64,000 nt of DNA from Gammaproteobacteria bacterium (GCA_003645455.1 QNFE01000003.1:1442-65441), one strand, 5' to 3'. Positions 10,248 to 45,639 are shown, counted from the first letter of the stretch. Program-made: numbers and translations. The notes: a model not told the origin generated them from the sequence alone.

Positions 10248-10279
10248 ATTCTAAAATTTGATAGAGATTTTCCTCGTGC

Positions 10280-10549: not shown

Positions 10550-10649
10550 AAAATAATAGTTTTTAAAAAATTAAACCACAATAACACAAAAAATTAAATC
10601 ATTCAAAAATCTCGTGTTATAATACCAATTTTTTAATTTTAAAAATATA

Positions 10650-10862
10650 ATGTTATCAATAACCATAAACAACCAAACAATTGAAAATTTTTATAAAAAA
10701 GATTGTCAAAATAATCAAAATAAATTCATTGATAATTTAATAGGTTATATTGAAAATTATAAAATAAAACAAAGCATAACAACAGGTTTGCATCAAGCAC
10801 AGCTCATAAAAAATGGCAAATTAGAAAAAATAGATTTAAAACAAGCCTTAAGGAAGCTCTAA
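10650..10862 (+). CDS. Hypothetical small protein, possible antitoxin for downstream RelE-family toxin
   Basis: 70 aa ORF upstream of toxin gene; no recognisable motif. Confidence 0.25.
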   Translation: MLSITINNQTIENFYKKDCQNNQNKFIDNLIGYIENYKIKQSITTGLHQAQLIKNGKLEKIDLKQALRKL

Positions 10863-11017
10863 ATAACTACGATAATCATTAAAACAGCCACTATGCACTT
10901 GACTTGCAATTTTTTAAAAAAGCCCACAGAACCTTGCTATAATGGCCTTTAAAAAAAATCACAATTAAATAAATTGACTATTTTTCTAATCACCGCAGTT
11001 ATTCAGAACTTCCTTAA

Positions 11018-11347
11018 ATGCCATATAAAATAATACCAACCCCTGAATTTATAAAAAATGTAAAAAATCTACGCAAAAAATTCAAAAACATAAAAACAGA
11101 TATTGAAAACCTGAGTTTGAAGCTTGAAAACAACCCAACAATTGGCACTAAATTATCAACAAACACTTACAAAATAAGATTAAAAAACAGCGATATTAAT
11201 AAAGGAAAAAGCGGAGGATATAGAGTCATAACATACATTGTCAATCAGCAAAACGAAATAATTTTATTAACAATTTATGCCAAGTCAAACCAAGAAATAA
11301 TAACGGACTCAGAAATTGAAAAGTTGATAGACAATACCAACAACTAA
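11018..11347 (+). CDS. RelE/ParE (HigB-like) family type II toxin
   Basis: KIRLKNSDINKGKSGGYRVITYIVNQQNEIILLTIYAKS matches the KSGGYRVIYY RelE/HigB signature. Confidence 0.55.
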   Translation: MPYKIIPTPEFIKNVKNLRKKFKNIKTDIENLSLKLENNPTIGTKLSTNTYKIRLKNSDINKGKSGGYRVITYIVNQQNEIILLTIYAKSNQEIITDSEIEKLIDNTNN

Positions 11348-11453
11348 CCCTTAAAACCAGCTGATTTTAAAAAACAAGATATTACCTTGTTTTAAATTCC
11401 CCTTTTAAATTATTTTTTGCTATAATATCAATTTTTAAAAAAAACATAACAAA

Positions 11454-11744
11454 ATGCAAACAATACAATTACAAATTGAAGATAAAAATATTGAAACATT
11501 TTTAACTATTTTAAATAATCTAAAAACTAATTTAATAAAAAATCTTACAATATCAAATGCAACAACTGAAAACTTAACCAAAAAATATCAAAACTCACCA
11601 CAATTCACAAAAGATAAAATTTATTTTCAATCTTGCTTAGATGACATTAACAACAACAAATCAAAACTATTAAAAGAAAACGAATATCAAACCCAAATAA
11701 CTGATTTTGAAGAAAAATTAAAATCAAAATATGCAGATAATTAA
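11454..11744 (+). CDS. Antitoxin-like protein (MQTIQLQIED..., paralog)
   Basis: Shared N-terminus and shared promoter sequence with 9356..9550. Confidence 0.35.
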   Translation: MQTIQLQIEDKNIETFLTILNNLKTNLIKNLTISNATTENLTKKYQNSPQFTKDKIYFQSCLDDINNNKSKLLKENEYQTQITDFEEKLKSKYADN

Positions 11745-11998
11745 AAGCACTCAATATCTAAAAAAACTGCAAATTATCATGGAATATATTGCAAAAGATA
11801 ATTTATCAAGAGCATTAAAATTTAGAAAAAGTTTAGATGATGAAATTGATAACAACATAATAAATATGCCATTCAAATATCGCAAATCAATATGAGAGAT
11901 TTAATATTCAAAGGTTATGTAATTCCATATAAAATTGAGACTAACAACAATCGCATAATTATAATAGGTATAAATAAATACAAACTAAATTTATAATT
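11734..11998 (+). pseudogene. ParE-like toxin gene, frameshifted
   Basis: ATG at 11734 overlaps the antitoxin stop. Frame 1 gives MQIIKSTQYLKKLQIIMEYIAKDNLSRALKFRKSLDDEIDNNIINMPFKYRKSI* and the +1 frame continues RDLIFKGYVIPYKIETNNNRIIIIGINKYK*, which is a ParE C-terminal signature. Confidence 0.4.
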
Positions 11999-12109
11999 TA
12001 TAACTATGAAAACAATTAAAACAACAACAGGATTAGTGCAAACAATGAGAGAAATCCGCGACAAATATAGTTGCGAGATTTTGCCTATGTCGCTAACCTA
12101 AAAAAATTC

Positions 12110-12261
12110 CCGTCATTGCGAGGCGGACGGAAAAATGGTGTAATATCAAGCACTTAAACCGCCGTGGCAATCTCTTGAGGGGATAACGGAAACCCTGCGA
12201 GATAACCACGGCAGTTGATTACACCAGTTCCTCTTTTTTCTCCGTCTGCCTCGTTATGACG
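12110..12261. repeat. MITE family 1 copy
   Basis: Near-identical to 9063..9215. Confidence 0.7.
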
Positions 12262-12408
12262 GATTCTTTTTTTGTTTGGCAAAAATATAAAAATTAGTTA
12301 TTTCGCAATTCCACATAGTGGAAACAAGCTCTAAAAACAGAACAAAAAAAACAACAACAAAAACCAAAAAAGTTTATAATAGATGATTTTTTAAAACCGG
12401 AGCAATTT

Positions 12409-13322
12409 ATGAAAAAAGTAATTTTTATTTTAAGTTTATTTTTAACTAACCTATTGTTCGCCTATCAGTATGACCCTTTAAAAGCAGTTATGGCATATGA
12501 CGCACAAAAAAAAGGTGATTATAAAAAAGCAAGCGTATTGTGGAAGCAAAGTTGTGATGAAGGTAATGCAAATGGTTGTTTTAATCTTGGGTCATGTATG
12601 ACAATGGCAAAGGTGTTAGACAAGATAAAGTAAAAGCTATCATGCTCTACAAACAAGCCTGTGATGGAAGAGATGCCATGGGTTGCTTTAATCTTGGGTT
12701 GATGTATAGTAAGGGACAAATTTTAAAGCAAAATTTAGTAAAAAGTAAATTTTATGTTGGCAAGGCATGCGATTTGGGGCATCAACGAGGGTGTGAAGCC
12801 TACAAAAAACTCAACGAGCAAGGAATAAGTTCTGCCCCTATAAACGGTAGTGGCGACAACATAACAGATAATTTTAAAAATGCGATGACTTATTATAAAG
12901 CTGAAAATTTTTCACAAGCTTTGATTTATTTTGAAAAATCTTGCAATGATGGTAAGTTTATATCTTGTAATAATGCAGGTGGCATGTATCGGCTGGGGGA
13001 AGGCACAACTAAAAATCATCAATCTGCTTTGAATTTATTTGAAAAGGCTTGTAATGGCAAGACTTATATAGGTTGTTATAATTTGGCAGAGATGAACCTT
13101 TTAGGACAAGAAGTAAAAATAAATAAAAACACTAGGGGTGAGGGATTTAAACTTCTAATATATTCTTGTGATACTGGTAATCATGGTTTGTCTTGTTATA
13201 AGTTAGGAACATTGTCAGAGAATGCAAAAGATGAAAAAATGCAAGGTTTAAGCCAGTTTTATTTTAAAAAATCTTGTAAATTAGGACATAAAGAATCCTG
13301 CGGTAAAATATCAACAGAGTGA
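12409..13322 (+). pseudogene. Secreted Sel1/HCP-like cysteine-rich repeat protein with -1 frameshift near 12590
   Basis: ORFs 12409..12633 and 12594..13322 are the same gene split in GGG at 12588-12590: GCFNLG | VMYDNGKGVRQD is the expected repeat reading. Confidence 0.5.
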
Positions 13323-13337
13323 TTATTAGGTTTTTAA

Positions 13338-13556
13338 TTATGTAGATATGCTTTGCAAAATTTCAATATCTTTGCGGATTAGGTTGTTGATAGTTTTATT
13401 TAATGAAAAATTTGCCTTGCTATTTTTGTTTTTGTTTATAAAAAATTCTTTGTTTTCTTTGTCAAGGTAAATCGGAATATCTAATTCATTTTCAGGGCGA
13501 TAAAATTTACCTTGTTCGGCATCAGTAAAATCATATTCTTTTTTCATTTTTTGCAC
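13338..13556 (-). CDS. brnA: BrnA antitoxin
   Basis: KKEYDFTDAEQGKFYRP... BrnA-like; overlaps brnT. Confidence 0.5.
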   Translation of the reverse strand: MQKMKKEYDFTDAEQGKFYRPENELDIPIYLDKENKEFFINKNKNSKANFSLNKTINNLIRKDIEILQSIST

Positions 13557-13840
13557 CTTTGATAGTAATGGTTTTTTTCATTTTTGGTTGCGAGCCTTGC
13601 ACTTATAATACGAACGATTTCAAATTTATCAAAACCTCTGTATGTATGTGCCATAACCACAATTAAATTATTTTTTGTTTTTCCTAATATAATCCATCTG
13701 TCTTCATTTTGAGAGTTTTCATTGTCCTGCTTATTTAATGAAAAAGGATCAGAAAATACAGACAAAGCATCCTCAAAAGAGATTTTGTGTTTTTTTAAAT
13801 TACTTGTTGCTTTTTTATTGTCCCATTCAAATTTCATCAT
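13544..13840 (-). CDS. brnT: BrnT ribonuclease toxin
   Basis: MMKFEWDNKKATSNLKKHKISFEDALSVFSDP matches the BrnT N-terminal signature. Confidence 0.65.
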   Translation of the reverse strand: MMKFEWDNKKATSNLKKHKISFEDALSVFSDPFSLNKQDNENSQNEDRWIILGKTKNNLIVVMAHTYRGFDKFEIVRIISARLATKNEKNHYYQRCKK

Positions 13841-14000
13841 AAAACTGCAAACAAGAAAAATTGACTACTATACCTTAATACTTTAATTTTTGCAAATATC
13901 TTTATCTGACCGAGAAAAAATATTATTGCGATTTTACAACTTTTAATTTTTGTTTTTGCTATTATGGTTATTTTACATTATAAAACATTAGGTAAAAATT

Positions 14001-14261
14001 ATGCAAACCGCTAAACTTTTTTTAAATGGCAATAGTCAAGCCGTTCGTTTTCCTAAATCATATAACTTTAAAACAGACAAAGTGTATTTAAAAAAAGTGC
14101 CACAGGGTGTGCTTTTGATGCCAGCTGAAAACAATAATGATGATAATATATGGGATAAATGGCAGAAAAATTTAGACGAGTTTAGTTCTGATTTAAAAAT
14201 TAAAAGAGAGCAGAATAAAACACAACAAAACAGAGCGAAAATAGATGAGTTATTTGCTTGA
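14001..14261 (+). CDS. vapB: VapB antitoxin (AbrB/SpoVT-like)
   Basis: NGNSQAVRFPKSYNF... motif; overlaps vapC. Confidence 0.6.
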   Translation: MQTAKLFLNGNSQAVRFPKSYNFKTDKVYLKKVPQGVLLMPAENNNDDNIWDKWQKNLDEFSSDLKIKREQNKTQQNRAKIDELFA

Positions 14262-14649
14262 TACAAATATCTGCATTTATATTATCAACAATAGTTATAA
14301 AGAGGTTGTAGATAAGTTTAAAACAATTGCAATAGGCGATATTCATATCTCATCAATTACTGTCTCGGAACTTTTTTATGGAGTGCATAAAAGTAAAAAT
14401 AAAGATGATAATTTAATCAAATTAGACAACTTTCTTAATCCTTTTGAAATTCTTGTTTATGACAAAAAAGCATCACAAACTTATGGTTCTCTTCGTGCAA
14501 AATTAGAAAAAACAGGCAATGTTATAGGGTCGCTTGATATGTTAATAGCATCATCTGCCATCAGCCAAAATTTTACTTTGGTAACAAACAATGAAAAAGA
14601 GTTTAATCGTATTGGCAATTTAAAAATTGAAAATTGGATTGAAAAATAA
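14245..14649 (+). CDS. vapC: VapC PIN-domain toxin
   Basis: MSYLLDTNICIYIIN... PIN signature; 134 aa. Confidence 0.75.
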   Translation: MSYLLDTNICIYIINNSYKEVVDKFKTIAIGDIHISSITVSELFYGVHKSKNKDDNLIKLDNFLNPFEILVYDKKASQTYGSLRAKLEKTGNVIGSLDMLIASSAISQNFTLVTNNEKEFNRIGNLKIENWIEK

Positions 14650-14652
14650 AAT

Positions 14653-14844
14653 ATGTATACTGACACAATAATAAAAGATGTTTGGAAAAATAAAGATGAA
14701 TATTTAAAAAATCATTCATATAACATTGACAACATAATCAAAGACTTGATGCAAAAACAAGAATTATCCAAGAAAAAATTTTATACTTTGCAAGAGTTGC
14801 CACAGAAGTCTGCGAATATAAAAAAACAAAATCAAGCACAATAA
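14653..14844 (+). CDS. Hypothetical small protein
   Basis: 63-aa ORF, no motif recognised. Confidence 0.2.
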   Translation: MYTDTIIKDVWKNKDEYLKNHSYNIDNIIKDLMQKQELSKKKFYTLQELPQKSANIKKQNQAQ

Positions 14845-14857
14845 AAAAGGTTAAAAT

Positions 14858-15340
14858 ATGTTAAAAATAGGTTATGGAATAGATACCCATGCTTTTATGG
14901 AAGGCGATAATATAGTATTAAATGGTATAAAAATCAAACACAATAAAGCGATAAAAGCTCACTCAGACGGTGATGTTGCTATCCATTCGTTATGTGATGC
15001 AATCTTAGGGGCAAGTGCATTGGGGGATATTGGCGATTATTTTAAAGATACGGATGACAAATATAAAAATATTGATAGCACGATTTTATTAAAAAAATCA
15101 TACCAGATGGCACAACAAAAAAATTATAAAATCAATAATATTGATATGACAATAATAACCGAAACACCAAAAATATCAGAACATAAAAACAAAATGAAAG
15201 AAAATTTATCTGCAATATTAAAAATTGATATTGACGATATAAATATCAAAGCCACAACCTGCGAAAAATTAGGTTTTATTGGTGGCAAAAAAGGAATAAG
15301 TGTGCATTGTGTAGTTCTTATGGAGGATAAAAAATGTTAG
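14858..15340 (+). CDS. ispF: 2-C-methyl-D-erythritol 2,4-cyclodiphosphate synthase
   Basis: MLKIGYGIDTHAF...HSDGDV...IGDY motifs. Confidence 0.85.
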   Translation: MLKIGYGIDTHAFMEGDNIVLNGIKIKHNKAIKAHSDGDVAIHSLCDAILGASALGDIGDYFKDTDDKYKNIDSTILLKKSYQMAQQKNYKINNIDMTIITETPKISEHKNKMKENLSAILKIDIDDINIKATTCEKLGFIGGKKGISVHCVVLMEDKKC

Positions 15341-17189: not shown

Positions 17190-17783
17190 ATGAACCCACT
17201 AAAATCTATCCCCCAAACCATAGTATTAGGCTTTGCATTATCCTTAATACTAGCTTTCGTCTTTAAAAGTAATAACTTTAATTTGTTGGAGTTATCAGTG
17301 TGGTTACATGTAATATTCGGCATAGTTTGGATTGGGTTATTATATTATTTTAATTTTATTCAAGTTCCTGCTATGGCTGATGCTTTGGCGGATAAAAATG
17401 GTCCGGGTCCTGCTGCTATTGGTAAATATGTAGCTCCCAAAGCATTATTGTGGTTTCGCTGGGCAGCTCTTGCAACCTGGATTACAGGCATTACAAGCTT
17501 AGAAGCGATGGCTCCTGGCACCTCATTAAAAGCATTTATGTTACAACCTGGGTTTGAGGTAATTGGCATAGGTGCATATTTGGGTAGCATAATGTTATTT
17601 AATGTATGGGTTCTTATTTGGCCAAACCAAAAAAAGATCTTGGGGCTTGGCAAAACGAAAGCCACTCCCGATCAAATAAATGGTGCAAAAGTTGTAGCGC
17701 TGTATGCCTCACGGATAAATACAATATTATCTATCCCATTATTATTAACCATGACAGCATATGGACATGGTATGGTTTTTTAA
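17190..17783 (+). CDS. Polytopic membrane protein of unknown function
   Basis: Multiple hydrophobic helices; no catalytic motif recognised. Confidence 0.35.
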   Translation: MNPLKSIPQTIVLGFALSLILAFVFKSNNFNLLELSVWLHVIFGIVWIGLLYYFNFIQVPAMADALADKNGPGPAAIGKYVAPKALLWFRWAALATWITGITSLEAMAPGTSLKAFMLQPGFEVIGIGAYLGSIMLFNVWVLIWPNQKKILGLGKTKATPDQINGAKVVALYASRINTILSIPLLLTMTAYGHGMVF

Positions 17784-17811
17784 AAAAATTTTATAAGCAA
17801 AACAGCAATTT

Positions 17812-18414
17812 TCAGATTTTAGATAATTCAAAGCGGTAAAACCAATCCGAACCCAATAAAGGCTCTTTTTTGATAAGTTTTAAAGCTGGTGTGTTATCTA
17901 ATAAATCCTCAAATACAACATCTAAACGAGTGGCAATCTTACCTACTAAGGGAGATAAAAAACGTCTTATGGGGGCAGGTTGATTTTTTTGTAAAAACTT
18001 ATCAATAATGATTATTTTGCCATCTTTTTTAAGTACCCTGGAACACTCTTGCAAGGCACGATAAGAATCTGGCACCACTGCCAAAATAAGGTGCATAATA
18101 ACGATATCAAAACTATTATCTGCATAGGATAAATCCATAACATCATCAATTTTAAGATCTATTTTTACTCCATATTTTTCTGCCCTACCATGGGCAATTT
18201 TTAACATAGCAGGAGTAATATCACAGCCATTATAAACAGCATCTTTTGGTAAAAAAGGTAAATCAAGGCCTGTGCCGACTCCTGCAATTAAGACTTTTTT
18301 ACCTCTTAAAGGGCCTAAGTTTTTAATGCTTTTTTCGCGCATTGTAGTGCTGAATTTTTTAACAGCAAAATCATAAAAAGGAGCAATCAAGGAATAACTG
18401 TGTTTTAAGCTCAT
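17812..18414 (-). CDS. Class I SAM-dependent methyltransferase
   Basis: VLIAGVGTGLDLPFL motif I. Confidence 0.5.
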   Translation of the reverse strand: MSLKHSYSLIAPFYDFAVKKFSTTMREKSIKNLGPLRGKKVLIAGVGTGLDLPFLPKDAVYNGCDITPAMLKIAHGRAEKYGVKIDLKIDDVMDLSYADNSFDIVIMHLILAVVPDSYRALQECSRVLKKDGKIIIIDKFLQKNQPAPIRRFLSPLVGKIATRLDVVFEDLLDNTPALKLIKKEPLLGSDWFYRFELSKI

Positions 18415-18519
18415 AATTTTAAAAATAAATAAAAAGTATATTTTAACAAAAAAATAGATAAAATGTTATAATAAGATGTTTTTAATGTCGCAAGACATAC
18501 TTACAATTAACTTATCCTA

Positions 18520-19155
18520 ATGTTTGAAAATCTATCAATTCTTGAAATTATTATAGTCGTGGCATTGCCGATTTTATCAGCGGTAATTTTGCACGAGGTA
18601 GCCCATGGATATGTCGCATATTTATTAGGGGACAACACCGCAAAAATGATGGGTAGGTTATCATTGAACCCCATCAAACATATTGACCCGATTGGCACGA
18701 TTTTAATTCCGGCTTTATTAGTTATGATACAAGCAGGTTTTGTGTTTGGCTATGCACGTCCGGTGCCAGTTAATTGGTTTAATTTAAAAAATCCAAAAAT
18801 TGATATGGTAAAGGTAGCCATCGCAGGACCATTGACTAACTTATGTTTGGCATTTTTTTGGGCGATAACTTTAAAATTTTTTATACCAACTGAAATCCAT
18901 CTGTTGATTTTGATGGCAGAGCTTGGAGTATTTTTAAATATATTTTTAATGGTTTTTAATTTGTTGCCAGTTCCTCCTTTGGATGGTGGGCGAGTTTTAC
19001 GAGGATTTTTGCCAGATAAATATGCCATTTATCTTGACAAAGCTGAACCCTATGGAATGATTATTGTGGTGTTGTTGTTGATAAGTGGTTATCTGATGCC
19101 GATCATGAAACCTATTATTTTATTTTTTTTAGAAATAATTAAATATGTGGTCTGA
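18520..19155 (+). CDS. Site-2 protease family (M50) membrane metalloprotease
   Basis: HEVAHG zinc motif within TM helices. Confidence 0.6.
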   Translation: MFENLSILEIIIVVALPILSAVILHEVAHGYVAYLLGDNTAKMMGRLSLNPIKHIDPIGTILIPALLVMIQAGFVFGYARPVPVNWFNLKNPKIDMVKVAIAGPLTNLCLAFFWAITLKFFIPTEIHLLILMAELGVFLNIFLMVFNLLPVPPLDGGRVLRGFLPDKYAIYLDKAEPYGMIIVVLLLISGYLMPIMKPIILFFLEIIKYVV

Positions 19156-20386
19156 TAATCAAATTATTAAAAGCCTATTTAATCGACGGATGTTGATCTG
19201 TGTTTTTACAGGTTTTGCCTCGGGTTTGCCTTTGTATGTTGTATATACTTTATTGCCTGCGTGGCTCAGAAGTGAGGGGGTAAGTTTAACTAATATCGGA
19301 TTTTTTGCTTTGGTGGGTACGCCATATACTTGGAAATTTTTTTACTCACCTTTAATTGATAGATACCCTTTGCCATTTCTGGGGATTCGCCGTGGTTGGA
19401 TGTTTATAACCCAGATTATATTATTTTTTATAATTGCCGCCTTTGGTTGGTTTGAACCTAATATATCCTTGTGGAGTATCGCAGTTTTAGCTTTTGCTTT
19501 GGCTTTGTTTAGTGCCTCTTTGGATATAGTGCTTGATGCTTATCGCCGTGAATTATTACCAGATAGTGAGTTAGGGCTTGGTAATTCAATTCATGTCAAT
19601 GCTTATCGGGTGGCAGGTTTAATCCCGGGATCACTGGCTTTAATTTTATCAGATCATTTAAGTTGGGAGTGGGTTTATTTTATTGTGGCTTTATTTATTT
19701 TGCCCGGGATTTTTATGACTTTATTTATCAAAGAATTAGAGCATAAAAATAAAACCCCGAACACCTTAAAAGATGCGATTGTTTTGCCGTTTATTGATTT
19801 TTTTACTCGCAATGGTGTCAAACAAGCTTTATGGGTATTGGCTTTTATGTTGTTTTATAAACTCGGCGACTCAATGGCAACGGCTTTATCAACTCCATTT
19901 TATCTTGATTTAGGATTTACCAAAACTCAAATAGGAATTGTCGCTAAAAATGCCGCTTTATGGCCGATGGTAATAGGCGGTATGGCAGGCGGTTTATTGA
20001 TGGTTAAAATTGGTATCAATAAAGCATTATGGTTGTTTGGTTTCGTGCAGATTATTACAATTGGTGGTTTTGTAGTTTTGGCAGAAGTCGGCAATAATTT
20101 GGCAGTTTTGGCAGTCGTCATCGCTTTTGAATATTTGGGGGTAGGGCTTGGCACCGCAGCTTTTGTGGCTTTTATTGCCCGCTCTACAAACAAAACATTT
20201 GTCGTGACTCAATTTGCCCTATTAACCGCTTTGACAGCTCTTCCTCGCACATTTGCCAACTCTATCACAGGAATTATGGTAGACTATATGGGTTGGAGTA
20301 ACTTTTTTTGGGTCTGTATTTTCTTGGCAATTCCTGGAATGTTAATGCTTTTCAAAGTTGCCCCTTTTTTTGAAAGATCTGAATGA
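19145..20386 (+). CDS. ampG: AmpG-family muropeptide MFS permease
   Basis: MFS topology; AmpG-like N-terminus (LPLYVVYTLLPAWL); genomic context with nagZ. Confidence 0.7.
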   Translation: MWSDNQIIKSLFNRRMLICVFTGFASGLPLYVVYTLLPAWLRSEGVSLTNIGFFALVGTPYTWKFFYSPLIDRYPLPFLGIRRGWMFITQIILFFIIAAFGWFEPNISLWSIAVLAFALALFSASLDIVLDAYRRELLPDSELGLGNSIHVNAYRVAGLIPGSLALILSDHLSWEWVYFIVALFILPGIFMTLFIKELEHKNKTPNTLKDAIVLPFIDFFTRNGVKQALWVLAFMLFYKLGDSMATALSTPFYLDLGFTKTQIGIVAKNAALWPMVIGGMAGGLLMVKIGINKALWLFGFVQIITIGGFVVLAEVGNNLAVLAVVIAFEYLGVGLGTAAFVAFIARSTNKTFVVTQFALLTALTALPRTFANSITGIMVDYMGWSNFFWVCIFLAIPGMLMLFKVAPFFERSE

Positions 20387-20555
20387 CCTATGTGATTGGT
20401 AAAATAGTCCGTTTGCCTCCGATTGTGAATCTTTAAGAAGACGGTAATAGTAAGTCTCTGACAAGCTTCTTAAAAATTTGCAAGCGGTGATAAAGTTGTA
20501 AGTTTTAACGATTGCATAGGTTATTTAGGTATTCCACTTATAATAGAGGATAAAA

Positions 20556-21167
20556 ATGGCTAATTTATTTATTATTACTGCCCCATCTGGGGTTGGTAAA
20601 ACTTCGCTTATTCGCGAGCTAATGCAACAGGATGTTTTGAGTATAAATTTGGCAATATCACACACAACAAGACCTGCCAGAGACGGTGAACGTGATGGGG
20701 TTGAGTATTATTTTATTGATGAATTATCTTTTAAAAAAATGATTAATGATAATGATTTTGTAGAATACGCAGAGGTTTTTAATAATTTTTATGGCACCTC
20801 AAAACAGGAGATTGCAAATAAATTATCTGAAAATCAAAATATTATTTTGGAGATTGACTGGCAAGGAGCAAAAATCGCTCGCAAAGTCTTTAAAGATGCA
20901 ATAAGTATTTTTATTTTACCACCATCAATTGGGACGATTGAAAAAAGACTCAATATAAGAGCCACAGATAACCTTGATATAATTAAAAATCGGTTAAAAC
21001 AAAGCAAGATTGAGCTCTCTCATTATGATGAGGCAGATTATCTTATTATCAATGATGATTTTCAACAAGCCGTGCAGGATTTGCATAATATCATAGTAGC
21101 CTCCCATAACAATATAAAAACTATGCAAAAACAATACTCCGAACTGATTGAAAGCCTCTTAAAATAA
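20556..21167 (+). CDS. gmk: Guanylate kinase
   Basis: ITAPSGVGKTSL P-loop; HTTRPAR. Confidence 0.85.
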   Translation: MANLFIITAPSGVGKTSLIRELMQQDVLSINLAISHTTRPARDGERDGVEYYFIDELSFKKMINDNDFVEYAEVFNNFYGTSKQEIANKLSENQNIILEIDWQGAKIARKVFKDAISIFILPPSIGTIEKRLNIRATDNLDIIKNRLKQSKIELSHYDEADYLIINDDFQQAVQDLHNIIVASHNNIKTMQKQYSELIESLLK

Positions 21168-21949
21168 TGAAAAAATTTGCGGTTATTGGCAACCCTATCA
21201 AACATAGTTTGTCGCCTATAATTCATCAAAATTTTGCTAAACAATTTAAGATAAAATTAGAATATCAAAAAATTCTTGCCACAGATGATAACTTTAAAAA
21301 AATTGTCACAGATTTTTTTAAAAATGGTGGGGTAGGTTTAAATATTACCGTACCTTTTAAGTTTATAGCTTTTAATCTTTGTGATATTTTATCGGATAGG
21401 GCAAATATGGCAGGCTCTGTTAATACTTTATATCTTGATAAAAACAATAAAATCTGTGGCGACAATACCGATGGTGCAGGTTTGGTAAATGATTTAGAAC
21501 AAAACTTAAATTATAAAATAAAAAATAAAAAAATTTTAATCTATGGGGCAGGGGGAGCAACCGCCGGAATTATTTATCCAATTTTACAAAACCTACCAAA
21601 AAATATTGATATAACTAATCGCACCATCAAAAAAGCCTATGATATGGCAGAGAGATTCAATAAATTTGGCAACATACAAGCTATATCAATTGATAAGTTA
21701 AATAATAACTGTTATGATTTGATTATCAATGCCACCTCAACCGGATTAAGTGGCGAAACCTTGCCTTTAACATCAGGTATAATACACAATACAACACTTT
21801 GTTATGATTTAGCATACAGCAAAAAGCCAACTAATTTTATGCTGTGGGCAGATAAAAACGGAGCCAACAAAACTACAGACGGCAAAGGAATGTTAAAAGA
21901 GCAGGCTGCCATCTCATTTTATATCTGGCACCATAAAAAACCTATCTAG
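21167..21949 (+). CDS. aroE: Shikimate dehydrogenase
   Basis: KHSLSPIIHQ motif; GAGGA NADP site. Confidence 0.8.
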   Translation: MKKFAVIGNPIKHSLSPIIHQNFAKQFKIKLEYQKILATDDNFKKIVTDFFKNGGVGLNITVPFKFIAFNLCDILSDRANMAGSVNTLYLDKNNKICGDNTDGAGLVNDLEQNLNYKIKNKKILIYGAGGATAGIIYPILQNLPKNIDITNRTIKKAYDMAERFNKFGNIQAISIDKLNNNCYDLIINATSTGLSGETLPLTSGIIHNTTLCYDLAYSKKPTNFMLWADKNGANKTTDGKGMLKEQAAISFYIWHHKKPI

Positions 21950-22258
21950 CAAAAATCCCTGTTATAATGGGATTCTTTTTGCTTTTTATATCTATGCAAA
22001 CATTTGGGATAAAATATTCAAAAATAAAGTTTATAAAATGTGTTATGATAGTACCTTTTTACTCTTTTAAAACTTATGAAAATTTTTAATAAAATTGCCA
22101 CAGTCCCTGTTGCTGTTATCCTAATCGGCGGTGTAGCAGTGTATGCAACTTCCAATAAAAACGGGGGGGGGTAGATAATTGTTCAAATTATCAAACTTAT
22201 CCACAAATACCATCAGACTTACAACCCACTACAGCCCAAAAAACCCAATCTTGCAAAA

Positions 22259-22888
22259 TTGCTAATAATCCAAAACGAACACCTAATAAATACAAAGGCA
22301 AAAGGGGGTGCAAAACAATTATTACACACAAAACTTTACAATAAAACATCATTTTATTGTGATCGTCCATATAAACAGCATAAAAAATCACCTGATAGAA
22401 AGTGTTATGAAAAAGACTGCTCGCTGAATATCAACAAAGGCAAGGAATTACAAAAAAACACAATAGATTCGGAACATATTGTTCCTCGGTCAACATTAGG
22501 AAAAAAATCACCTGACTACAAACTATCTCAAAGTGACTTACACAATCTTCGCCCTACTGTTGCCATATTAAACAATCAAAGACAAAATTATCCATTTATT
22601 GATAATATAAATAGCCCACACATAGAAATTAGCAAATGTGATTTAAAGATTACCCATAAAGCAAAACTGGTATCGCCACCAAACAGCAAAAAAGGAACAA
22701 TAGCTCGCACCTATTTATATATGAATGACACCTATTCCTTGCAATTAAGTGAACAAGAATTAGAGCAATATTTAAGATGGCACAAACTTTATCCGCCAAA
22801 TAACTGGGAAATAAAACGCAATATTTTAATTCAAAAATATCAAGGCAATACTAACCCTTGGATTGATATTTATGAGACAAAAAAATGA
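22259..22888 (+). CDS. Endonuclease I (EndA/Vvn family) domain, separated from its in-frame signal-peptide segment (22076..22171) by TAG at 22172
   Basis: AKQLLHTKLYNKTSFYCDRPY...SIARTYLYM... matches periplasmic endonuclease I; upstream in-frame MKIFNKIATVPVAVILIGGVAVYATSNKNGGG* ends right after a G9 tract. Confidence 0.55.
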   Translation: MLIIQNEHLINTKAKGGAKQLLHTKLYNKTSFYCDRPYKQHKKSPDRKCYEKDCSLNINKGKELQKNTIDSEHIVPRSTLGKKSPDYKLSQSDLHNLRPTVAILNNQRQNYPFIDNINSPHIEISKCDLKITHKAKLVSPPNSKKGTIARTYLYMNDTYSLQLSEQELEQYLRWHKLYPPNNWEIKRNILIQKYQGNTNPWIDIYETKK

Positions 22889-23340
22889 AAAAATATCTCA
22901 TAACTACAATGTTATTTTTTGTGGCAAGTTCTGTTTATTCTTTTAATGATAAATCGTCAAACCATAAAAATCCTGCAAATTTGGCAGAATTAACAAAATT
23001 ATTTAATAATGGATTAAATGAATATGATAAGGGCAATTATACCAAAGCTGCTGATTTATGGCAAAGAGCCTGTGATGGTGGGGTATCTGGTGCTTGTTAT
23101 AATCTCGCAGTCCTGTATACCAACGGCACAGGGGTTAAAAAAAACCCAAAAATAGCTTTTGAATTATATCAAAAATCTTGCAACAATCATTATGCTGATG
23201 CTTGTTTTAATCTGGGAATTATGCATAATCAAAAACACGGCATTTATAAAGACAAAACCAAAGCCAAAACATACTTTAAAAAAGCCTGTGATTTGGGGCA
23301 TTCTTTTAGTTGTCAAGGCTTAAAATCTATCAAGGATTAA
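22885..23340 (+). CDS. Secreted Sel1/HCP-like cysteine-containing repeat protein
   Basis: Signal peptide; ACYNLAVLY, ACFNLGIMH repeats. Confidence 0.6.
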   Translation: MKKYLITTMLFFVASSVYSFNDKSSNHKNPANLAELTKLFNNGLNEYDKGNYTKAADLWQRACDGGVSGACYNLAVLYTNGTGVKKNPKIAFELYQKSCNNHYADACFNLGIMHNQKHGIYKDKTKAKTYFKKACDLGHSFSCQGLKSIKD

Positions 23341-23532
23341 GTTATGCTGGTAATTAGAAATTATTATACACGAAAATCAGATAAATTGACAAAATAAATA
23401 TTTTTGTTTATAATTCTATTTTTTGCTTAAAATATATTAATATTATCTAAACTTCTTAGAAAAAGTGGGAGATTTTGATAAACCCATCAAAGCATTTGTT
23501 GATTTAACCCAAGGTAAAACATACGGTAAATA

Positions 23533-25029
23533 ATGGCATCACTACTAAAAGAATATTCAAAAGAAAAACTTACAGGGCAAATCTGGACTCCTTTTTATAT
23601 AGTTGATAAAATTCTTGATGATATAAAATATGATGGCTCTGATGTTCTTGGTAAAACAATTTTAGACCCTGCCTGTGGAGATGGACGATTTTTGATAAAA
23701 ATAGCTCAACGGATAATAAAATATTCAAAACTCTGCGATTTACAACATAATCTCAATAATATCTATGGCTGGGATATTGACAAAAAAGCCATCAAGATTG
23801 CTCGTCAAAAATTAGATAAAATAATCCAGCCTTATGATATCTGTGTCAATTGGAATTTAAAAATTTGTAATTCCCTGCAACAGATAAACGGACAAATTGA
23901 TTTATTTTCCGATAAAAAACAAATTCAAAAATTTGATTTTATTGTCGGCAATCCGCCATATATTCGCATTCAACATTTGAATGAGAGCACACGACAATAT
24001 ATCAAAAAAAACTATTCTTTTTGTAAGATGGGTTCAACTGACATATATATAGCATTTTATGAGTTGGCTTTGAATTTATTAAAAAATGATGGTGTTTGTG
24101 GTTATATTAGCCCCAATTCTTTTTTTTATACTGATACTGCAAAATATTTACGAGAGTATTTTCAAGACCATAAAAATCTTCTGCAAGTCAGTAACTATGG
24201 CACAATCCAGTTATTTGAAAATGCGATTACCTATAGTGCAATAGTTATTTTTAACAAACAACAACAAAATAATTTTTTATATCAATTAGCGGAGAATAAT
24301 ACAGATTTTAAACAAAGATATATAGATTTTAAGGAATTGACACAATATTCTTTTTGGCAATTAGCCACCAAAAAACTTAAAATCAAAAAAGGCATAAAAC
24401 TAAAAGACATCGCCGATATTCATGTGGGTTTGACAACTTTGGCTGATAAAATTTATATGATGCCACTATATAAAAAAGAGGGTGATTATATTTATCTTAA
24501 ATCAAAATATAATGGGGTGATACAGATTGAAAAATCTATTTGTAAACCTATCATAAAAGCCTCAAGAATAAAAAGCTCTGATGAGCCGATAAAAGAATTT
24601 GTGGTATTTCCATACAAAAAAACAACAGATGGTAACAGGATCATCAAAGAACAAGAGTTAAAACAAAAATATCCGCTTGCCTATGCTTATTTATCATCCA
24701 ACAAAGATATTTTATTAAAAAGAGATAATGGCAAAAAAAATAAAGTAGTATGGTATGCCTTTGGCAGAAGTCAAGGATTACTGACAAGTTTTGGCGAGAA
24801 AATCTTGCTATCACCGATGAATAAAAAACCTAATTTTATTTATCATAAAAATAAAAATGCTTGTTTTTATTCAGGTTATTGCATTAAATATAAAGGCGAT
24901 AATGATAAATTATTACAACAACTAAACTCAACCAGAATGGCAGAGTATATTCAAAGCTCGTCATCTGATTTATCATCTGGCTGGAAAGCTTATAACAAAA
25001 GAGTTTTGCAAGAGTTTGTCATAGTATAG
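23533..25029 (+). CDS. N6-adenine DNA methyltransferase (gamma-class, TaqI/Eco57I-like), solitary
   Basis: DPACGDGRFL motif I and FIVGNPPYIRIQ motif IV (NPPY). Confidence 0.65.
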   Translation: MASLLKEYSKEKLTGQIWTPFYIVDKILDDIKYDGSDVLGKTILDPACGDGRFLIKIAQRIIKYSKLCDLQHNLNNIYGWDIDKKAIKIARQKLDKIIQPYDICVNWNLKICNSLQQINGQIDLFSDKKQIQKFDFIVGNPPYIRIQHLNESTRQYIKKNYSFCKMGSTDIYIAFYELALNLLKNDGVCGYISPNSFFYTDTAKYLREYFQDHKNLLQVSNYGTIQLFENAITYSAIVIFNKQQQNNFLYQLAENNTDFKQRYIDFKELTQYSFWQLATKKLKIKKGIKLKDIADIHVGLTTLADKIYMMPLYKKEGDYIYLKSKYNGVIQIEKSICKPIIKASRIKSSDEPIKEFVVFPYKKTTDGNRIIKEQELKQKYPLAYAYLSSNKDILLKRDNGKKNKVVWYAFGRSQGLLTSFGEKILLSPMNKKPNFIYHKNKNACFYSGYCIKYKGDNDKLLQQLNSTRMAEYIQSSSSDLSSGWKAYNKRVLQEFVIV

Positions 25030-25142
25030 GTCAAAAACTCCGTCATAATGAGGCAGAATGATGCGGTTATCTCTTTGGGTCTTGTTGTTTGCCCTATAAT
25101 GTCGTTTGATTTTCGTTGCCATAACATGGATTATTCTGATGG

Positions 25143-25240
25143 GCTGTGAAAAATGGTGTCAGTAAAACCACAGACGGCAAGAGTATGTTAAAAGAGCAGG
25201 CTGCGATTTCTTTTTATATCTGGCATCATAAAAAAACCTA
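25143..25240 (+). repeat. Diverged duplicate of the aroE 3-prime end (about 90% identical to 21841..21949)
   Basis: Translates in frame as AVKNGVSKTTDGKSMLKEQAAISFYIWHHKKT*, compared with aroE ...KNGANKTTDGKGMLKEQAAISFYIWHHKKPI*. Confidence 0.7.
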
Positions 25241-25343
25241 AAACCTTGTCATTGCGAACGAAGTGAAGCAATCTTGCAAAAGCAGACGGATAATAACAAT
25301 AGATAACCACAGCACCTGATTACGCACAAGAGTATCTATTTTT

Positions 25344-26003
25344 TTAATAACCTAATAAACGAATATAACTTACCAATCCTGCTACTTCTTGTTTGTTAAG
25401 AATTCCATCCCAAGCCGGCATAAAACGCCCTTTGCCTTTTTGAATGCTTTGTATTAGGTCTTGATTACTAAGTTTATTAGTGTTGATAGGGTTGGTGTGA
25501 TCGGTCGGAGTTATGCCGATTAAATTTGTCATAATACCATCACCGTCACCATCTTTACCGTGACACACCGCACAATAGGTTTGATAGGTTTTTTTACCTA
25601 AGTTAGGGTCTCCCATAAGTTGATGCCGGCTACGAGATAAAAATCTTAAATAAGCAATTATTGAATCTATTTGACTGTCATTAAAAACTGTGTTCCACTC
25701 TGGCATAGCATCTGATAAAATATTGTGTCTATCTCTACCTGTTATCGTTTGTTTGCCCCGACCTGTAATAATTTTTTTTAAAATTGTATCACTACGAGAG
25801 CGGACAGTTGTTGTTAAATCGGCAGGTTTGATTTTCATAGCTTTTGCCAAAGTGCCATCACCTTTGCCATTTTTGCCGTGGCATAATTGACAATAAGAGG
25901 TAAATAATTTACGACCATCAAAGGCATCACCATTTGCTGCTAATATCGGCTGGTGAAAAAATATAAAAATCAACAATATGATAGGATAAATTTTTTTATT
26001 CAT
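25344..26003 (-). CDS. Dihaem c-type cytochrome (c4-like)
   Basis: Two CxxCH motifs (CQLCHG, CAVCHG); signal peptide. Confidence 0.6.
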   Translation of the reverse strand: MNKKIYPIILLIFIFFHQPILAANGDAFDGRKLFTSYCQLCHGKNGKGDGTLAKAMKIKPADLTTTVRSRSDTILKKIITGRGKQTITGRDRHNILSDAMPEWNTVFNDSQIDSIIAYLRFLSRSRHQLMGDPNLGKKTYQTYCAVCHGKDGDGDGIMTNLIGITPTDHTNPINTNKLSNQDLIQSIQKGKGRFMPAWDGILNKQEVAGLVSYIRLLGY

Positions 26004-26004
26004 T

Positions 26005-26367
26005 TTAAAGTTCCTTGCCGTTAAAAACCTTGATAGTTAGTTTTTCCATATCAATATTCTGAATACAACCTAAGTTTATTCGGTAATGATTGGGTTGACG
26101 AAATGTTTGATGAAAAGGGTGGATGCCACATTTTTGACAAAAATAATGTTTAGCGGTTTTATCGCCAAATTGATACATAGTAAGATTATTGCTCTCATCT
26201 GTTATCTTTATCTCATCAGGCGACACCACAAAAGATGACATAACATAACCCTTGCGTTGGCATATAGAGCAATTACATCTCAAGCCAGTGCTAATTTTAT
26301 CAGATTCTGTAAATTCAAATTTAATGGCTTGGCAGTGGCAAGAGCCAGTATATTTTTTTGTATTCAT
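26005..26367 (-). CDS. GFA-family (glutathione-dependent formaldehyde-activating/CENP-V-like) zinc protein
   Basis: CHC...CNCSIC...CQKCG cysteine pattern. Confidence 0.55.
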   Translation of the reverse strand: MNTKKYTGSCHCQAIKFEFTESDKISTGLRCNCSICQRKGYVMSSFVVSPDEIKITDESNNLTMYQFGDKTAKHYFCQKCGIHPFHQTFRQPNHYRINLGCIQNIDMEKLTIKVFNGKEL

Positions 26368-27110
26368 TTTTTGTTATCCATCCATTGTTGAACGGTTTTT
26401 ACTAATAATTCATTTTTATCATTAAAAAAATGGTCTGTCTTGACTACTATTTGTTGGTATTTAGGGTTATTTTTAGCAGCTTGTTGGCGTTTTTTGACCG
26501 AATCTAAAACAGGTTTAATATCATCTGTGCCGTATAAATCTAAGGTTGGGATTTTTATTTTTGACAGATATTTGACGGTAAAATTTGGCATACCGATACC
26601 GACAAAATATTTAAATGGATGGGGATTATTAGCCATAAAATGAGATGCCATAACAGTTCCCATACTGTGAGCTACGACAAAATCAACTTCTAATTTTTGT
26701 TGTTGCAAGTAATCAATGGCAGCTTTAATTCTTTTGTCGGCGAGAGTTAATAATTTTAAGTATTCAGGAGCCTCAATACCATTAGCAAGAACTGGCATTT
26801 GCATTGATAGGGTGTGATAACCATATTTTGTAAGCTCTATTCGTAAGGGTTGGATAATTTGTTGCATATTAGGGTGGACACCAATTCCATGCATAATTAT
26901 CACAGCTTTGCGGCTTGGTTTTTCAGATGCAGTCAAAATTGATAAAAAAGAATGTTTGCGGGCTTTAAGCCATACTACTTCACCATCCATCAAACTATCT
27001 TCAATAGCAACACTCCACCTTTTTTCTTTGGCAAAGTTAGGGGTAATATCACCTGCAAAAATTGCAGATGAATAAAAAAATATAAGCAATAAAAACGTCC
27101 AAAATTTCAT
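26364..27110 (-). CDS. Secreted alpha/beta-hydrolase
   Basis: AHSMG nucleophile elbow; signal peptide. Confidence 0.5.
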   Translation of the reverse strand: MKFWTFLLLIFFYSSAIFAGDITPNFAKEKRWSVAIEDSLMDGEVVWLKARKHSFLSILTASEKPSRKAVIIMHGIGVHPNMQQIIQPLRIELTKYGYHTLSMQMPVLANGIEAPEYLKLLTLADKRIKAAIDYLQQQKLEVDFVVAHSMGTVMASHFMANNPHPFKYFVGIGMPNFTVKYLSKIKIPTLDLYGTDDIKPVLDSVKKRQQAAKNNPKYQQIVVKTDHFFNDKNELLVKTVQQWMDNKK

Positions 27111-27134
27111 TATAAACTCTTAAAAATATTTATT

Positions 27135-27231
27135 TGAGACCTTTGCATAAATAAAGTGCTGTCTATGGAATGCTGCAAAAAAGTGCATTTTGTGTATTTT
27201 ATAAATTGTGCTTTATTTATGCAAAAATCTC
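27135..27231. repeat. MITE family 2 copy (short)
   Basis: GAGACCTTTGCATAAATAAAGTGC...GTGCTTTATTTATGCAAAAATCTC. Confidence 0.55.
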
Positions 27232-32785: not shown

Positions 32786-32821
32786 AGTTCCACCAAAACA
32801 AACAAATAAAATAAAATAAAA

Positions 32822-32990
32822 ACCCCCGTCATTGCGAGCGTAGCGCGGCAATCTCCTAGGGCAGACGGACACCCAAAGAGACTGCCACGGCATCCTGCCT
32901 CGCAGTGACGGTATATTTTAAGAGACTGCCACACTGCACTTCGTTGCATTGCTGTGACAGAGTTTTTTCGGAGAGATTGTCGTGCAAAAA
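32822..32990. repeat. MITE family 1 copy
   Basis: CCGTCATTGCGAGCG...CGCAGTGACGG termini. Confidence 0.6.
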
Positions 32991-33789: not shown

Positions 33790-34022
33790 TGTCATAAAAA
33801 ATAATCCCGTCATAACGAGTGACAAAAACCTCGTCATTGCGAGCGAGCTTGCGAGCGTGGCAATCTTTTGGGGTTTGTCCTGTCTTGTTTGCAGGTCTAA
33901 TAGCACCCCAAGAGATTGCTTCGTCGCTACCGCTCCTCGCAATGACGGGACTCTATTAAGAGATAACCACGGCGGATAATTGCTCCGTGTTTCATCCTTT
34001 CTCCGTCTGCCTCGTTATGACG
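33790..34022. repeat. MITE family 1 copies (composite)
   Basis: Multiple GTCATTGCGAG / CTCGCAATGAC / CGTTATGACGG motifs. Confidence 0.55.
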
Positions 34023-34029
34023 GATATTT

Positions 34030-34464
34030 TTATTTTGATTTTATTAATTTGCTTTCAAGTACACCTTTTCTACCAGTTTTTTCATCCACTATATGCAGTT
34101 TTGTTCTGGGAACAAGTATTCCCATTTTTGCTTCTTGCCAGATAAAATATAGTTTTCCTTTTAAGGCTTTGATGGTAACAGAATCTGTATTTTCAGCTAT
34201 TGACTTGACAGTGTGAGTACCTGCTGGAACTTCTTTATAAAAATAGGTATTCATTTTTGTTAAACCTATGAGTTTGTTATCTAACATGGTCTCCATTCTA
34301 TACGCTCCACCAAAAAATTCATTCCTATAAATATAAATTCCTGCCTTTTCAGCTGGTGCTTTAAAATTTTTTGCCGTATGGTCTTCCTCATCAGTTGCCA
34401 TAGGAACAGTGCTACAACCTGCAACAAAATAACCAACAAATAGTAAAAATATAATTTTTTTCAT
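34030..34464 (-). CDS. Lipoprotein, DUF2846-like
   Basis: Start at internal MKKIIFLLFVGYFVAGCS (lipobox); the ORF-track N-terminal extension lies in MITE sequence. Confidence 0.4.
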   Translation of the reverse strand: MKKIIFLLFVGYFVAGCSTVPMATDEEDHTAKNFKAPAEKAGIYIYRNEFFGGAYRMETMLDNKLIGLTKMNTYFYKEVPAGTHTVKSIAENTDSVTIKALKGKLYFIWQEAKMGILVPRTKLHIVDEKTGRKGVLESKLIKSK

Positions 34465-34544: not shown

Positions 34545-34728
34545 CATAAAAAATAATCTCGTCATTACCTAACTTATACAATTGCGAGCAACAGAATCCC
34601 GTCATTGCGAGGAACGAAGAGACAAAGCAATCTCTTTGGGTAAAAAGAGAGACTGCCACGCTCGCAGTGACGAAAACCCCCGTCATTGCGAGGAACGAAG
34701 CAATCTCATAAGGTCAGACGAACACCAA
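34545..34728. repeat. MITE family 1 copies
   Basis: GTCATTGCGAGGAACGAAG motifs. Confidence 0.5.
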
Positions 34729-34960
34729 AGAGACTGCCACACTCGCAAGCTCGTTCGCAGTGACGGATTCTTTTAAGAGACTGCCACACTCGCAAGCTCG
34801 CTCGCAGTGACGGATTCTTTTAAGAGACTGCCACACTCGCAAGCTCGCTCGCAGTGACGGATTCTTTTAAGAGACTGCCACACTCGCAAGCTCGCTCGCA
34901 GTGACAGTATATTTTTTGCTTGCTCGCAGTGACAGTATATTTTTTGCTCGCTCGTTATAA
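34729..34960. repeat. Tandem repeat, 47-nt unit (AGAGACTGCCACACTCGCAAGCTCGCTCGCAGTGACGGATTCTTTTA), about 4.5 copies, derived from MITE family 1 sequence
   Basis: Units begin at 34729, 34776, 34823, 34870; nearly identical. Confidence 0.7.
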
Positions 34961-45630: not shown

Positions 45631-45639
45631 AACCATTTT

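Follow-up and report, generated by a model that had tools for sequence, protein, structure and literature searches.

A duplicated aroE end bounds an insertion that may derive from a restriction-modification cassette in a gammaproteobacterial genome

In a 64,000-nucleotide stretch of the genome of a Gammaproteobacteria bacterium (GCA_003645455.1, QNFE01000003.1:1442-65441, hereafter the window), we find that the 3′ end of the shikimate dehydrogenase gene aroE is present twice, in direct orientation, and that the ~3.2 kb between the two copies (21945-25130) contain an intact gene for an N6-adenine DNA methyltransferase preceded directly by a short remnant of a putative restriction endonuclease gene. 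The reading that we favor, and to which we give an even chance of being correct, is that this interval would be the remnant of a decayed restriction-modification (R-M) cassette that entered independently of an integrase, by a route of the long-target-duplication type, and that was guided to aroE by homology. The movement of R-M cassettes that carry no mobility genes is still unexplained, and the locus described here is a further case, from a gammaproteobacterial lineage that has been sampled poorly.

The two aroE ends and the interval between them

A repeat search of the window identified an ungapped direct repeat core of 96 nt with 83% identity (21845-21940 versus 25140-25235), which a gapped local alignment widened to 21837-21944 (copy 1) versus 25131-25240 (copy 2) with a score of 121, i.e., a duplication of 96-108 nt with both copies on the plus strand. 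Copy 1 comprises the last ~35 codons of an intact aroE (21167-21949, plus strand, 260 aa; Pfam Shikimate_dh_N, 2.5e-24, and Shikimate_DH, 4e-9), serves as the functional 3′ end now joined to the body of this gene, and gives the protein the terminus HHKKPI. When aligned to the real interval the aroE end scores 116, as compared to a maximum of 27 and a mean of 23 for 300 random 3.4-kb pieces of the same AT-rich window (32% GC). An earlier reading of the sequence alone, made by a model (the sequence-only reading), had noticed that the last ~100 nt of aroE recur at 25143-25240, and the pairwise alignment places this recurrence far above the AT-rich background, with the difference that the identity between the copies is 83% and not ~90%. 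Translation also confirmed that copy 2 reads in frame as an AroE C-terminus, i.e., WAVKNGVSKTTDGKSMLKEQAAISFYIWHHKKT followed by a stop codon, with the reading closing in TDGKSMLKEQAAISFYIWHHKKT and the stop. The identical runs common to both copies include runs of 20 (the longest), 14 and 11 nt, and aroE is the sole gene in the 64-kb window with a duplicated end nearby.

The closest relative that we found, a 49-kb contig with 33% GC (L015), contains the same neighborhood in an uninterrupted form. In this contig gmk (59% identical to its counterpart in the window), aroE (encoding P0002, 57%) and a convergent gene encoding a di-haem cytochrome c (70%) are contiguous, with a spacer of 145 nt between aroE and the cytochrome gene that directly follows it. 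The window contains the same three genes, with the cytochrome c gene as the conserved right neighbor of aroE (25344-26003, minus strand; Pfam Cytochrome_CBB3, 2e-25), and with 3.2 kb plus the second aroE end located between aroE and this gene. Since all three genes are contiguous in L015, we take the adjacency of aroE and the cytochrome c gene to be ancestral and the 3.2-kb interval to be an insertion between these two convergent genes, and copy 2, which adjoins the cytochrome c gene, would sit where the original aroE end was. The left edge of the insert is marked by a terminator-like hairpin with a U-run (21948-21983, plus strand; -11.9 kcal/mol, z = -3.6, with 0 of 200 shuffles as stable), which overlaps the final 2 nt of the aroE stop codon. 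The earlier proposal of an insertion at aroE that supplied a replacement 3′ end is therefore in agreement both with the uninterrupted arrangement in L015 and with a copy 1 that has its own stop codon and terminator hairpin. Of the empty site that this proposal predicts in relatives, we obtained evidence at the level of family-wide synteny only, i.e., the adjacency of aroE and the cytochrome c gene in L015. The best AroE identities were 51% among 185,579 species genomes, 57% among 5.8 billion proteins (the protein of L015) and at most 43% in metagenome contigs, and no conspecific or congeneric aroE locus was present in our searches of genome contigs, metagenome contigs and the 5.8 billion proteins.

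Analysis of the 16 differences between the copies demonstrated that 12 are located at third codon positions, and that 11 are synonymous and 5 non-synonymous, which corresponds to a ratio of non-synonymous to synonymous divergence (dN/dS) of ~0.05. If copy 1 had been constrained and copy 2 neutral following a duplication, the expected synonymous share would be 0.31, and the observed 11 of 16 departs from this expectation (binomial p = 0.002). Because of this departure from duplication and neutral decay, the copies are best read as two alleles that diverged mostly while each was part of a working aroE, with one of them derived from another lineage. The same counts bear on a strict duplication in situ, in which the copies would have been identical at insertion and would have accrued all of their 17% divergence later. 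This is the literal model of the published class of R-M insertions discussed below, it agrees with the visible decay of copy 2, and the island is old enough to have lost most of a restriction gene and to have gained palindromic repeats of the host; however, five non-synonymous changes accrued by neutral decay (~6% per site) predict approximately 2 synonymous ones, where 11 are observed, and the published repeats are near-identical, so that we consider this explanation very improbable.

The outgroup L015 matches copy 1 at all four of the differences at first and second codon positions (4/4), i.e., these changes are all derived in copy 2. Copy 2 also contains a glycine-to-serine change at the invariant Gly of the DGxGML motif, and an A-run of 7 A where copy 1 has 6, a +1 A frameshift; when one A is removed the reading continues as HHKKPKT, which restores the KPxT motif present in 8 of 8 aligned relatives. 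Since the derived changes, the substitution at the invariant Gly and the frameshift are all located in copy 2, this copy appears to be the displaced, decaying end, and copy 1 the end under selection. Composition was uninformative as to which copy is native, with a GC content at third codon positions of 0.44 in copy 1, 0.41 in copy 2 and 0.25 in the aroE body.

Two Logan contigs (SRR6478866), produced by a different assembler, are base-identical to 17600-23489 and 23515-27212 of the window and thereby reproduce both repeat junctions, although the underlying reads are possibly the same as those of the source assembly. The Logan assembly breaks inside the island, at 23490-23514; strain heterogeneity was considered as the cause of this break and rejected, as the two contigs do no more than meet end to end in an AT-rich spacer, both in exact agreement with the window. 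The repeat is very unlikely to have caused a mis-join, because the contigs of the second assembler are base-identical and no run of identical nt common to the copies exceeds 20. The wider suspicion, that the contig is a chimera joining two strains at a shared aroE end, draws on the source being a metagenome-assembled genome and on the break within the island, and we regard it as barely credible: both junctions are reproduced base for base, an identical run of 20 nt, the longest, would not mislead assemblers, unique sequence downstream of the methylase gene leads into copy 2, and the same family of palindromic elements is present on both sides of the island and inside it.

L015 contains small repeats at the same gene end. 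A 15-nt motif, TTATGCAAAGGTCTC, located inside a conserved stretch of ~45 nt, recurs upstream of genes both in the window (10203, 17057, 27187, 36031, 44287 and 45752) and in L015 (6018, 10790, 10934, 11883 and 16191), and in L015 an inverted pair of TTATGCAAAGGTCTC brackets the spacer between aroE and the cytochrome c gene, with the left copy encoding the last codons of AroE (ending ETFA and a stop). In the window genome and in L015 alike, the aroE tail thus seems to be a place where small repeats land. In addition, L015 carries a decaying R-M system of its own at 3949-5930, next to secG and tpiA and beside an N6_N4 methylase, in which the HinfI-family endonuclease is split into open reading frames (ORFs) of 195 aa and 102 aa.

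The methylase and the remnant of its partner gene

Pfam agrees with the sequence-only reading that the interval carries endonuclease I, a Sel1 protein and an N6A methyltransferase with no integrase (3e-29, 6e-23 and 4e-30 for the three genes, respectively). The methyltransferase, a gamma-class N6-adenine enzyme of 498 aa, is encoded by an intact gene (23533-25029, plus strand; Pfam Eco57I, 3.6e-30, and N6_Mtase, 1.8e-17) that matches PF07669 with 105.7 bits (cutoff 25.3) and PF02384 with 64.1 bits (cutoff 20.4). Its translation shows the DPACGDG motif that binds S-adenosylmethionine and the catalytic GNPPY motif, its closest solved structures in the PDB are M.BseCI, CamA and M.TaqI, and 1252 homologues of ~498 aa with 55-66% identity are present in unrelated phyla. 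The enzyme retains every column that is invariant across 30 family members, and it is probably active as a solitary enzyme. A perfect match (12/12) to a sigma-70-like promoter (TTGACA-17-TATAAT; 23386-23414, plus strand) lies in the 192-nt spacer between the Sel1 and methylase genes, just upstream of the remnant described below, and this candidate promoter may now drive the solitary methylase.

The description of this methyltransferase as solitary holds for its present state, in that no intact cognate endonuclease is encoded beside it, but not for its origin. Directly upstream, the last 28 codons and the stop codon of a partner gene, a putative restriction endonuclease gene, survive at 23447-23533 (plus strand), with the stop codon overlapping the methylase ATG (TAATG). 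Partner ORFs of 263 aa from two other contigs (L019 and L021) match 23447-23530 with 61-68% identity over 28 aa (tblastn, E 1e-5 to 2e-5), and we aligned the remnant with four full-length partner C-termini and with the stub present in a further contig (L028). An intact partner ORF (263-270 aa) is located directly upstream of the homologous methylase in L019/L020, L021/L022, L024 and L026, i.e., in four independent genomic contexts, and with a junction of either a 2-nt gap or a 4-nt overlap. Because the last 28 codons of the partner survive directly upstream, we conclude that the solitary state of the window methylase is secondary, and that this gene was most likely once part of an R-M cassette.

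We counted 734 homologues of the partner ORF, which is matched by no Pfam or NCBIfam family and resembles no solved structure in sequence. An AlphaFold2 model of this protein (pLDDT 94.7) has as 4 of its 6 best PDB fold matches type II restriction endonucleases (EcoT38I, the R.BspD6I small subunit, BstEII and BbvCI), with all of these matches weak (E 2e-3 to 0.16). Taken together with the gene context, the model leads us to infer that the 263-aa partner is a putative restriction endonuclease (R, with M for the methylase). Loss of R with M kept recurs in this family: in two related genomes (L023, 4585-5999, and L028, 5882-5998) R has decayed to different extents at the same locus, beside a conserved methylase. 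In L023 a nonsense codon splits R, and an ORF of 212 aa with no relation to the cassette separates R from M, and in L028 R is reduced to a stub of 38 codons.

One homologous cassette is itself bounded by a gene-end duplication. In L019, an unrelated genome with 44% GC, an intact R-M pair with 37% GC lies between repeats at 5009-5118 and 7519-7627, which form a direct duplication of 96-110 nt, with its start exactly on the ATG of the carboxyltransferase gene downstream. These repeats are 94% identical, with 4 synonymous and 2 non-synonymous differences, and score 163 as compared to a null maximum of 31; only R and M are located between them, and no recombinase is present within 6 kb on either side. 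Flanking repeats were therefore present in two of the seven contexts of this R-M family, the window and L019, and since these duplications of ~100 nt involve the ends of two different genes, they tie the phenomenon to the cassette and not to an integrase specific for aroE. Several further comparisons were made and set aside: homologous cassettes share no conserved non-coding ends, no orphan gene fragments are present beside other cassettes of the family (this search turned up the split R gene of L023 instead), viral contigs yielded only distant methylases (at most 43%) and no further contexts, and L019 and L020 are essentially the same sequence and are uninformative as a strain comparison.

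The remainder of the interval is occupied by a pair of genes with no evident relation to the R-M cassette. The endonuclease I gene (22076-22888, plus strand) encodes a signal peptide and a nuclease domain (Pfam Endonuclease_1, 3e-29 on 22259-22888; NCBIfam deoxyribonuclease I, 1e-30, below the family cutoff), which share one frame with an in-frame TAG between them (22172-22174), located directly after a run of nine G (22163-22171). A Logan contig carries the same bases and run lengths at this site, and a second AAAAGGGGG run is present ~130 nt downstream of the first (22300-22308). From these features the gene is probably either a recent pseudogene or a slippage-prone contingency gene that is switchable through its homopolymer. 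The Sel1-repeat gene (22885-23340, plus strand; Pfam Sel1, 5.6e-23) overlaps the endonuclease I stop codon by 4 nt and encodes a protein of 151 aa with an N-terminal signal-like segment, which is 38% identical to a Sel1 paralogue at 12591-12818.

The endonuclease I-Sel1 pair either replaced the 5′ part of R later or arrived on the same donor segment, and its position suggests one further explanation, in which the pair was already downstream of aroE and the R-M cassette landed illegitimately between Sel1 and the cytochrome c gene with a foreign aroE scrap attached, so that the repeat that bounds the interval would be no target duplication. This account places the pair inside the interval without an extra event, it accounts for the allelic divergence of the copies, and it is in keeping with Sel1 genes being a resident multi-copy family in this genome. 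We nevertheless hold it to be improbable, as it calls for a chance landing of the scrap 3.2 kb away from aroE, with matching orientation and precisely beside the ancestral neighbor of aroE, as aroE and the cytochrome c gene are adjacent in L015, which indicates that the pair is not ancestral there, and as other cassettes of the family lack orphan gene fragments at their edges.

Mobility genes, palindromic elements and other features of the window

A Pfam scan that took in every ORF of 110 aa or more across the 64 kb identified no recombinase, integrase or transposase, and the window contains no tRNA gene and no Rfam match. The three non-coding gaps of the island are ~100-126 nt each and therefore leave no room for an integrase remnant. 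The sequence-only reading had seen in this island a degraded element of the integrase type, remnants of which might be located in the wider region; that part of it is not supported, as no such remnant is present among the ORFs of 110 aa or more of the 64-kb window, the gaps are too small, and at the gene-proximal edge of the repeat there is no identical core. This last point comes from a control, in which we measured the repeat that e14 forms in the icd gene of Escherichia coli in the same way. The e14/icd repeat spans 165 coding nt with 12 differences, 11 of which are at third positions, and opens with an 11-nt identical core at the gene-proximal edge, whereas at this edge the window repeat has 5 identical nt, after which the differences are at their densest (8 in the first 24 nt).

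These measurements bear on the main rival to a homology-guided entry, namely that an integrative element of the e14/icd type entered at the aroE 3′ end with the R-M genes as cargo, and that its integrase has since been deleted or, the element never having had one, that it was mobilised in trans by the integrase of a related element. Such an element would leave a direct repeat of a gene 3′ end and a gene rebuilt by an insert-borne end with a stop codon and terminator, as is observed; the synonymous-biased differences are as in icd and its displaced end icdC; R-M systems are often linked to integrases (PMC2853133); R is truncated at its 5′ side, so that a deletion inside the island did occur and could have removed an integrase; and any of the identical runs of 20, 14 and 11 nt could have served as a crossover core. 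Against this, neither the island nor the 64 kb contains a recombinase gene or fragment, homology continues on both sides of every longer identical run, and so around each candidate core, a feature that site-specific integration has no need of, and the L019 cassette shows a similar duplication at a different gene with room only for R and M. The missing proximal core and the absence of a recombinase weaken the integrase explanation, although later decay could have blurred such a core, and we regard it as possible but on the unlikely side.

Two palindromic elements are located beside copy 2. The first, a partial dispersed element (25033-25086; nhmmer E 4e-6, with a profile from 7 other copies), starts 4 nt after the methylase stop codon, within the 101-nt gap between the methylase gene and copy 2, and we interpret it as a later arrival inside the insert. 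The second, a degenerate element (25241-25332; nhmmer E 0.014 for 25241-25316), contains an exact 26-nt motif with a second match at 63925, and begins exactly where the homology between copy 1 and copy 2 stops. The TATCTA that follows it (25333-25338) matches the continuation of copy 1 (TATCTAG, 21944-21949), a match that is short, weak and made by inspection, and which suggests that the element was inserted into copy 2 later. Palindromic elements were considered and rejected as the boundaries of the island: they lie on either side of copy 2, the left junction has none, and they are dispersed repeats of the host that probably arrived later.

Both belong to a palindromic family resembling miniature inverted-repeat transposable elements (MITE) or repetitive extragenic palindromes (REP), with ends like AAAAACCCCGTCATTGCGAG and CTCGCAATGACGGGGTTTTT, in which TCAYTGCGAR occurs 20 times in comparison to an expected 0.4. 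Copies are located at 9055-9223, 12102-12270, 25033-25086, 25241-25332, 32818-32968, 33800-34031, 34591-34942, 61416-61583 and 63702-63998, with half-elements arranged in a 47-nt tandem array at 34728-34915. The family has no copies in 20.8 kb of L015 and weak matches in another contig (L002). Two of these copies, 9055-9223 and 12102-12270, form 169-nt repeats with 92% identity in a second region, the 5.9 kb (8967-14857) that separate ispD (8295-8966) and ispF (14858-15340), which are normally adjacent. This gap contains toxin-antitoxin genes encoding ParE (9550-9816), a RelE-like protein (11018-11347), BrnT (13544-13840) and VapC/PIN (14245-14649), with upstream antitoxin-like ORFs, as well as Sel1-repeat genes at 12409-13322. 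A duplicated ispD or ispF end was looked for here and not found.

Three other regions of the window are recorded here in their own right. A CRISPR-like array is present at 60335-61186 and 62611-63255, with the repeat GTCTTAATCCCCTTTATGTCGGGTCTCGGTCTCTGAC of ~37 nt at a spacing of 70-75 nt and at least 5 regular units, together with a nearby Cas1 ORF of 214 aa, whose match to the Pfam profile (283 positions) covers only positions 1-208; no further cas genes were recognized in the 64-kb window, and this CRISPR-like locus may be degraded. At 44308-47850, three paralogous ORFs without a Pfam match (440, 328 and 360 aa) follow one another in tandem; their 5′ regions are conserved among them (44275-44331 and 45741-45796), and a 36-nt tandem repeat (44428-44640) is located in the first. 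A protein of 789 aa with the middle and C-terminal domains of FliG at its C-terminus is encoded at 2524-4893, beside TPR and Sel1-repeat proteins, and no other flagellar genes are present in the window.

Proposed origin and comparison with known modes of insertion

The entry guided by homology, the copy that came from the donor and the order of events are what we infer from the observations above, and may be set out as follows. A small type II R-M cassette, with a putative endonuclease gene directly upstream of the methylase gene, would have entered the junction of aroE and the cytochrome c gene without an integrase. Most likely a segment of aroE would have come in with it from a related donor lineage, and homology to the resident aroE would have placed the insert, either through one crossover of a circular or tandem unit that had been released, or through a homologous crossover on one side and an illegitimate joint on the other. 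The aroE-attached copy would then have supplied the last ~35 codons, the stop codon and the terminator while the distal copy decayed. Afterwards R would have lost all but its last 28 codons and the endonuclease I-Sel1 pair would have taken that side, with the methylase remaining intact and with palindromic repeats of the host settling beside the distal copy.

A number of observations count against this proposal. The empty site is present at the level of synteny (L015, AroE 57% identical) and none at the level of DNA; the endonuclease I-Sel1 pair inside the repeat-bounded interval demands an extra event or a composite donor segment; and the assignment of the partner ORF as an endonuclease, made from gene context and weak fold matches, is putative. 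In addition, the e14/icd repeat, which an integrase made, shows the same synonymous bias, i.e., this bias does not discriminate against an integrase; copies that are 83% identical with at most 20 identical nt in a row are a poor substrate for RecA-type recombination; and the other five contexts of the R-M family are without flanking repeats. The window repeats, 83% identical with mainly synonymous differences, also depart from published repeat pairs of R-M insertions, which are about 93-100% identical (PMC2853133).

Repeats that are different alleles of a working gene end favor the homology-guided arrival of a cassette with a piece of the gene of its former host over an on-the-spot duplication. 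A more far-reaching version of it would read the synonymous-biased divergence of the repeats, seen in the window and weakly in L019, as the footprint of the "release and re-infection" hypothesized for R-M systems, and this we consider doubtful. Here the cassette would leave its host with ~100 nt of a housekeeping gene as a homology "address tag", and this tag would re-enter the same gene in a diverged host, where the end of the gene would be rebuilt and the insertion would be harmless; if true, R-M cassettes would have a means of site-specific spread that is integrase-free and dependent on the recombination of the host. The locus also points to dN/dS between flanking repeats as a cheap test, which could be used on thousands of R-M loci. 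For annotators, the practical lesson is that a gene end may be duplicated with no integrase present and yet not mark a degraded prophage or island, and that what is left of a lost endonuclease may sit, as a short stub, beside a solitary methylase.

Of the known systems, the integration of e14 or phage 21 into the 3′ end of icd in E. coli is the textbook case with an integrase (Hill et al. 1989; PMC13626634). As in the window, the 3′ end of a gene is duplicated and the insert provides the gene with a functional new end, the old one remains at the far side, as the pseudogene icdC in e14 and, likewise displaced, as copy 2 here, and the differences between the copies are mostly synonymous. In contrast to the window insert, with its 3.2 kb and no recombinase, e14 is 15 kb in size and encodes intE and xisE, and where e14 has its 11-nt core, at the proximal edge, the window has the least conserved part of its repeat.

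The cis-mobilisable elements (CIMEs) at fda in Streptococcus thermophilus are integrase-less, att-flanked elements at a gene 3′ end, which can carry R-M genes and which rely on a related integrase-bearing element using the same site. The window insert is similar to these in being bounded by direct repeats of a gene end without an integrase of its own, and dissimilar in that no short identical core is evident in its repeat; we know of no integrase-bearing element at, or usage as a site of, aroE in this lineage. Homology-facilitated illegitimate recombination (PMC3240628) would explain an import through one homologous arm, the fusion of divergent alleles and the lack of a recombinase in the insert. 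Descriptions of this process concern linear DNA and, for the most part, species with natural competence, and its usual outcome is the deletion and not the duplication of recipient sequence (PMC3240628), whereas the window shows a duplication, with no definable microhomology joint and with a palindromic element beside the junction.

The insertion of R-M systems accompanied by a long duplication of the target was reportedly described by Nobusato et al. in 2000. Under the name "insertion with long target duplication", Furuta, Abe and Kobayashi (2010; PMC2853133) define this class by the presence of both R and M in the insert, an insert of <20 kb, a duplication of >30 bp and no other mobile element, with duplications that range from 46 to >400 bp and some of which overlap gene 3′ ends, as in cases from H. 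influenzae. The same authors state the mechanism as unknown, and hypothesize a cycle of insertion, amplification via the repeats, release and re-infection, the last two of these steps without evidence (PMC2853133). The window differs from this class in that R is a 28-codon stub, in that the unrelated endonuclease I and Sel1 genes are located within the interval, and in that no alignable conspecific empty site is available. It agrees in size of insert (<20 kb) and of duplication (>30 bp) and in the absence of a linked mobile gene, and, as regards the genes themselves, contains an intact M together with the C-terminal 28 codons of R, the nuclease nature of which is putative. There is likeness also in the overall architecture, i.e., a small R-M insert without integrase or transposase, a duplication of ~100-108 nt that covers the 3′ end of the neighboring gene, a cargo with a GC content slightly below that of its flanks, and a homologous cassette that duplicates part of another gene elsewhere, and repeats that are allelic and 83% identical are what a cassette of this class would leave on carrying a piece of a gene of its former host into a diverged one.

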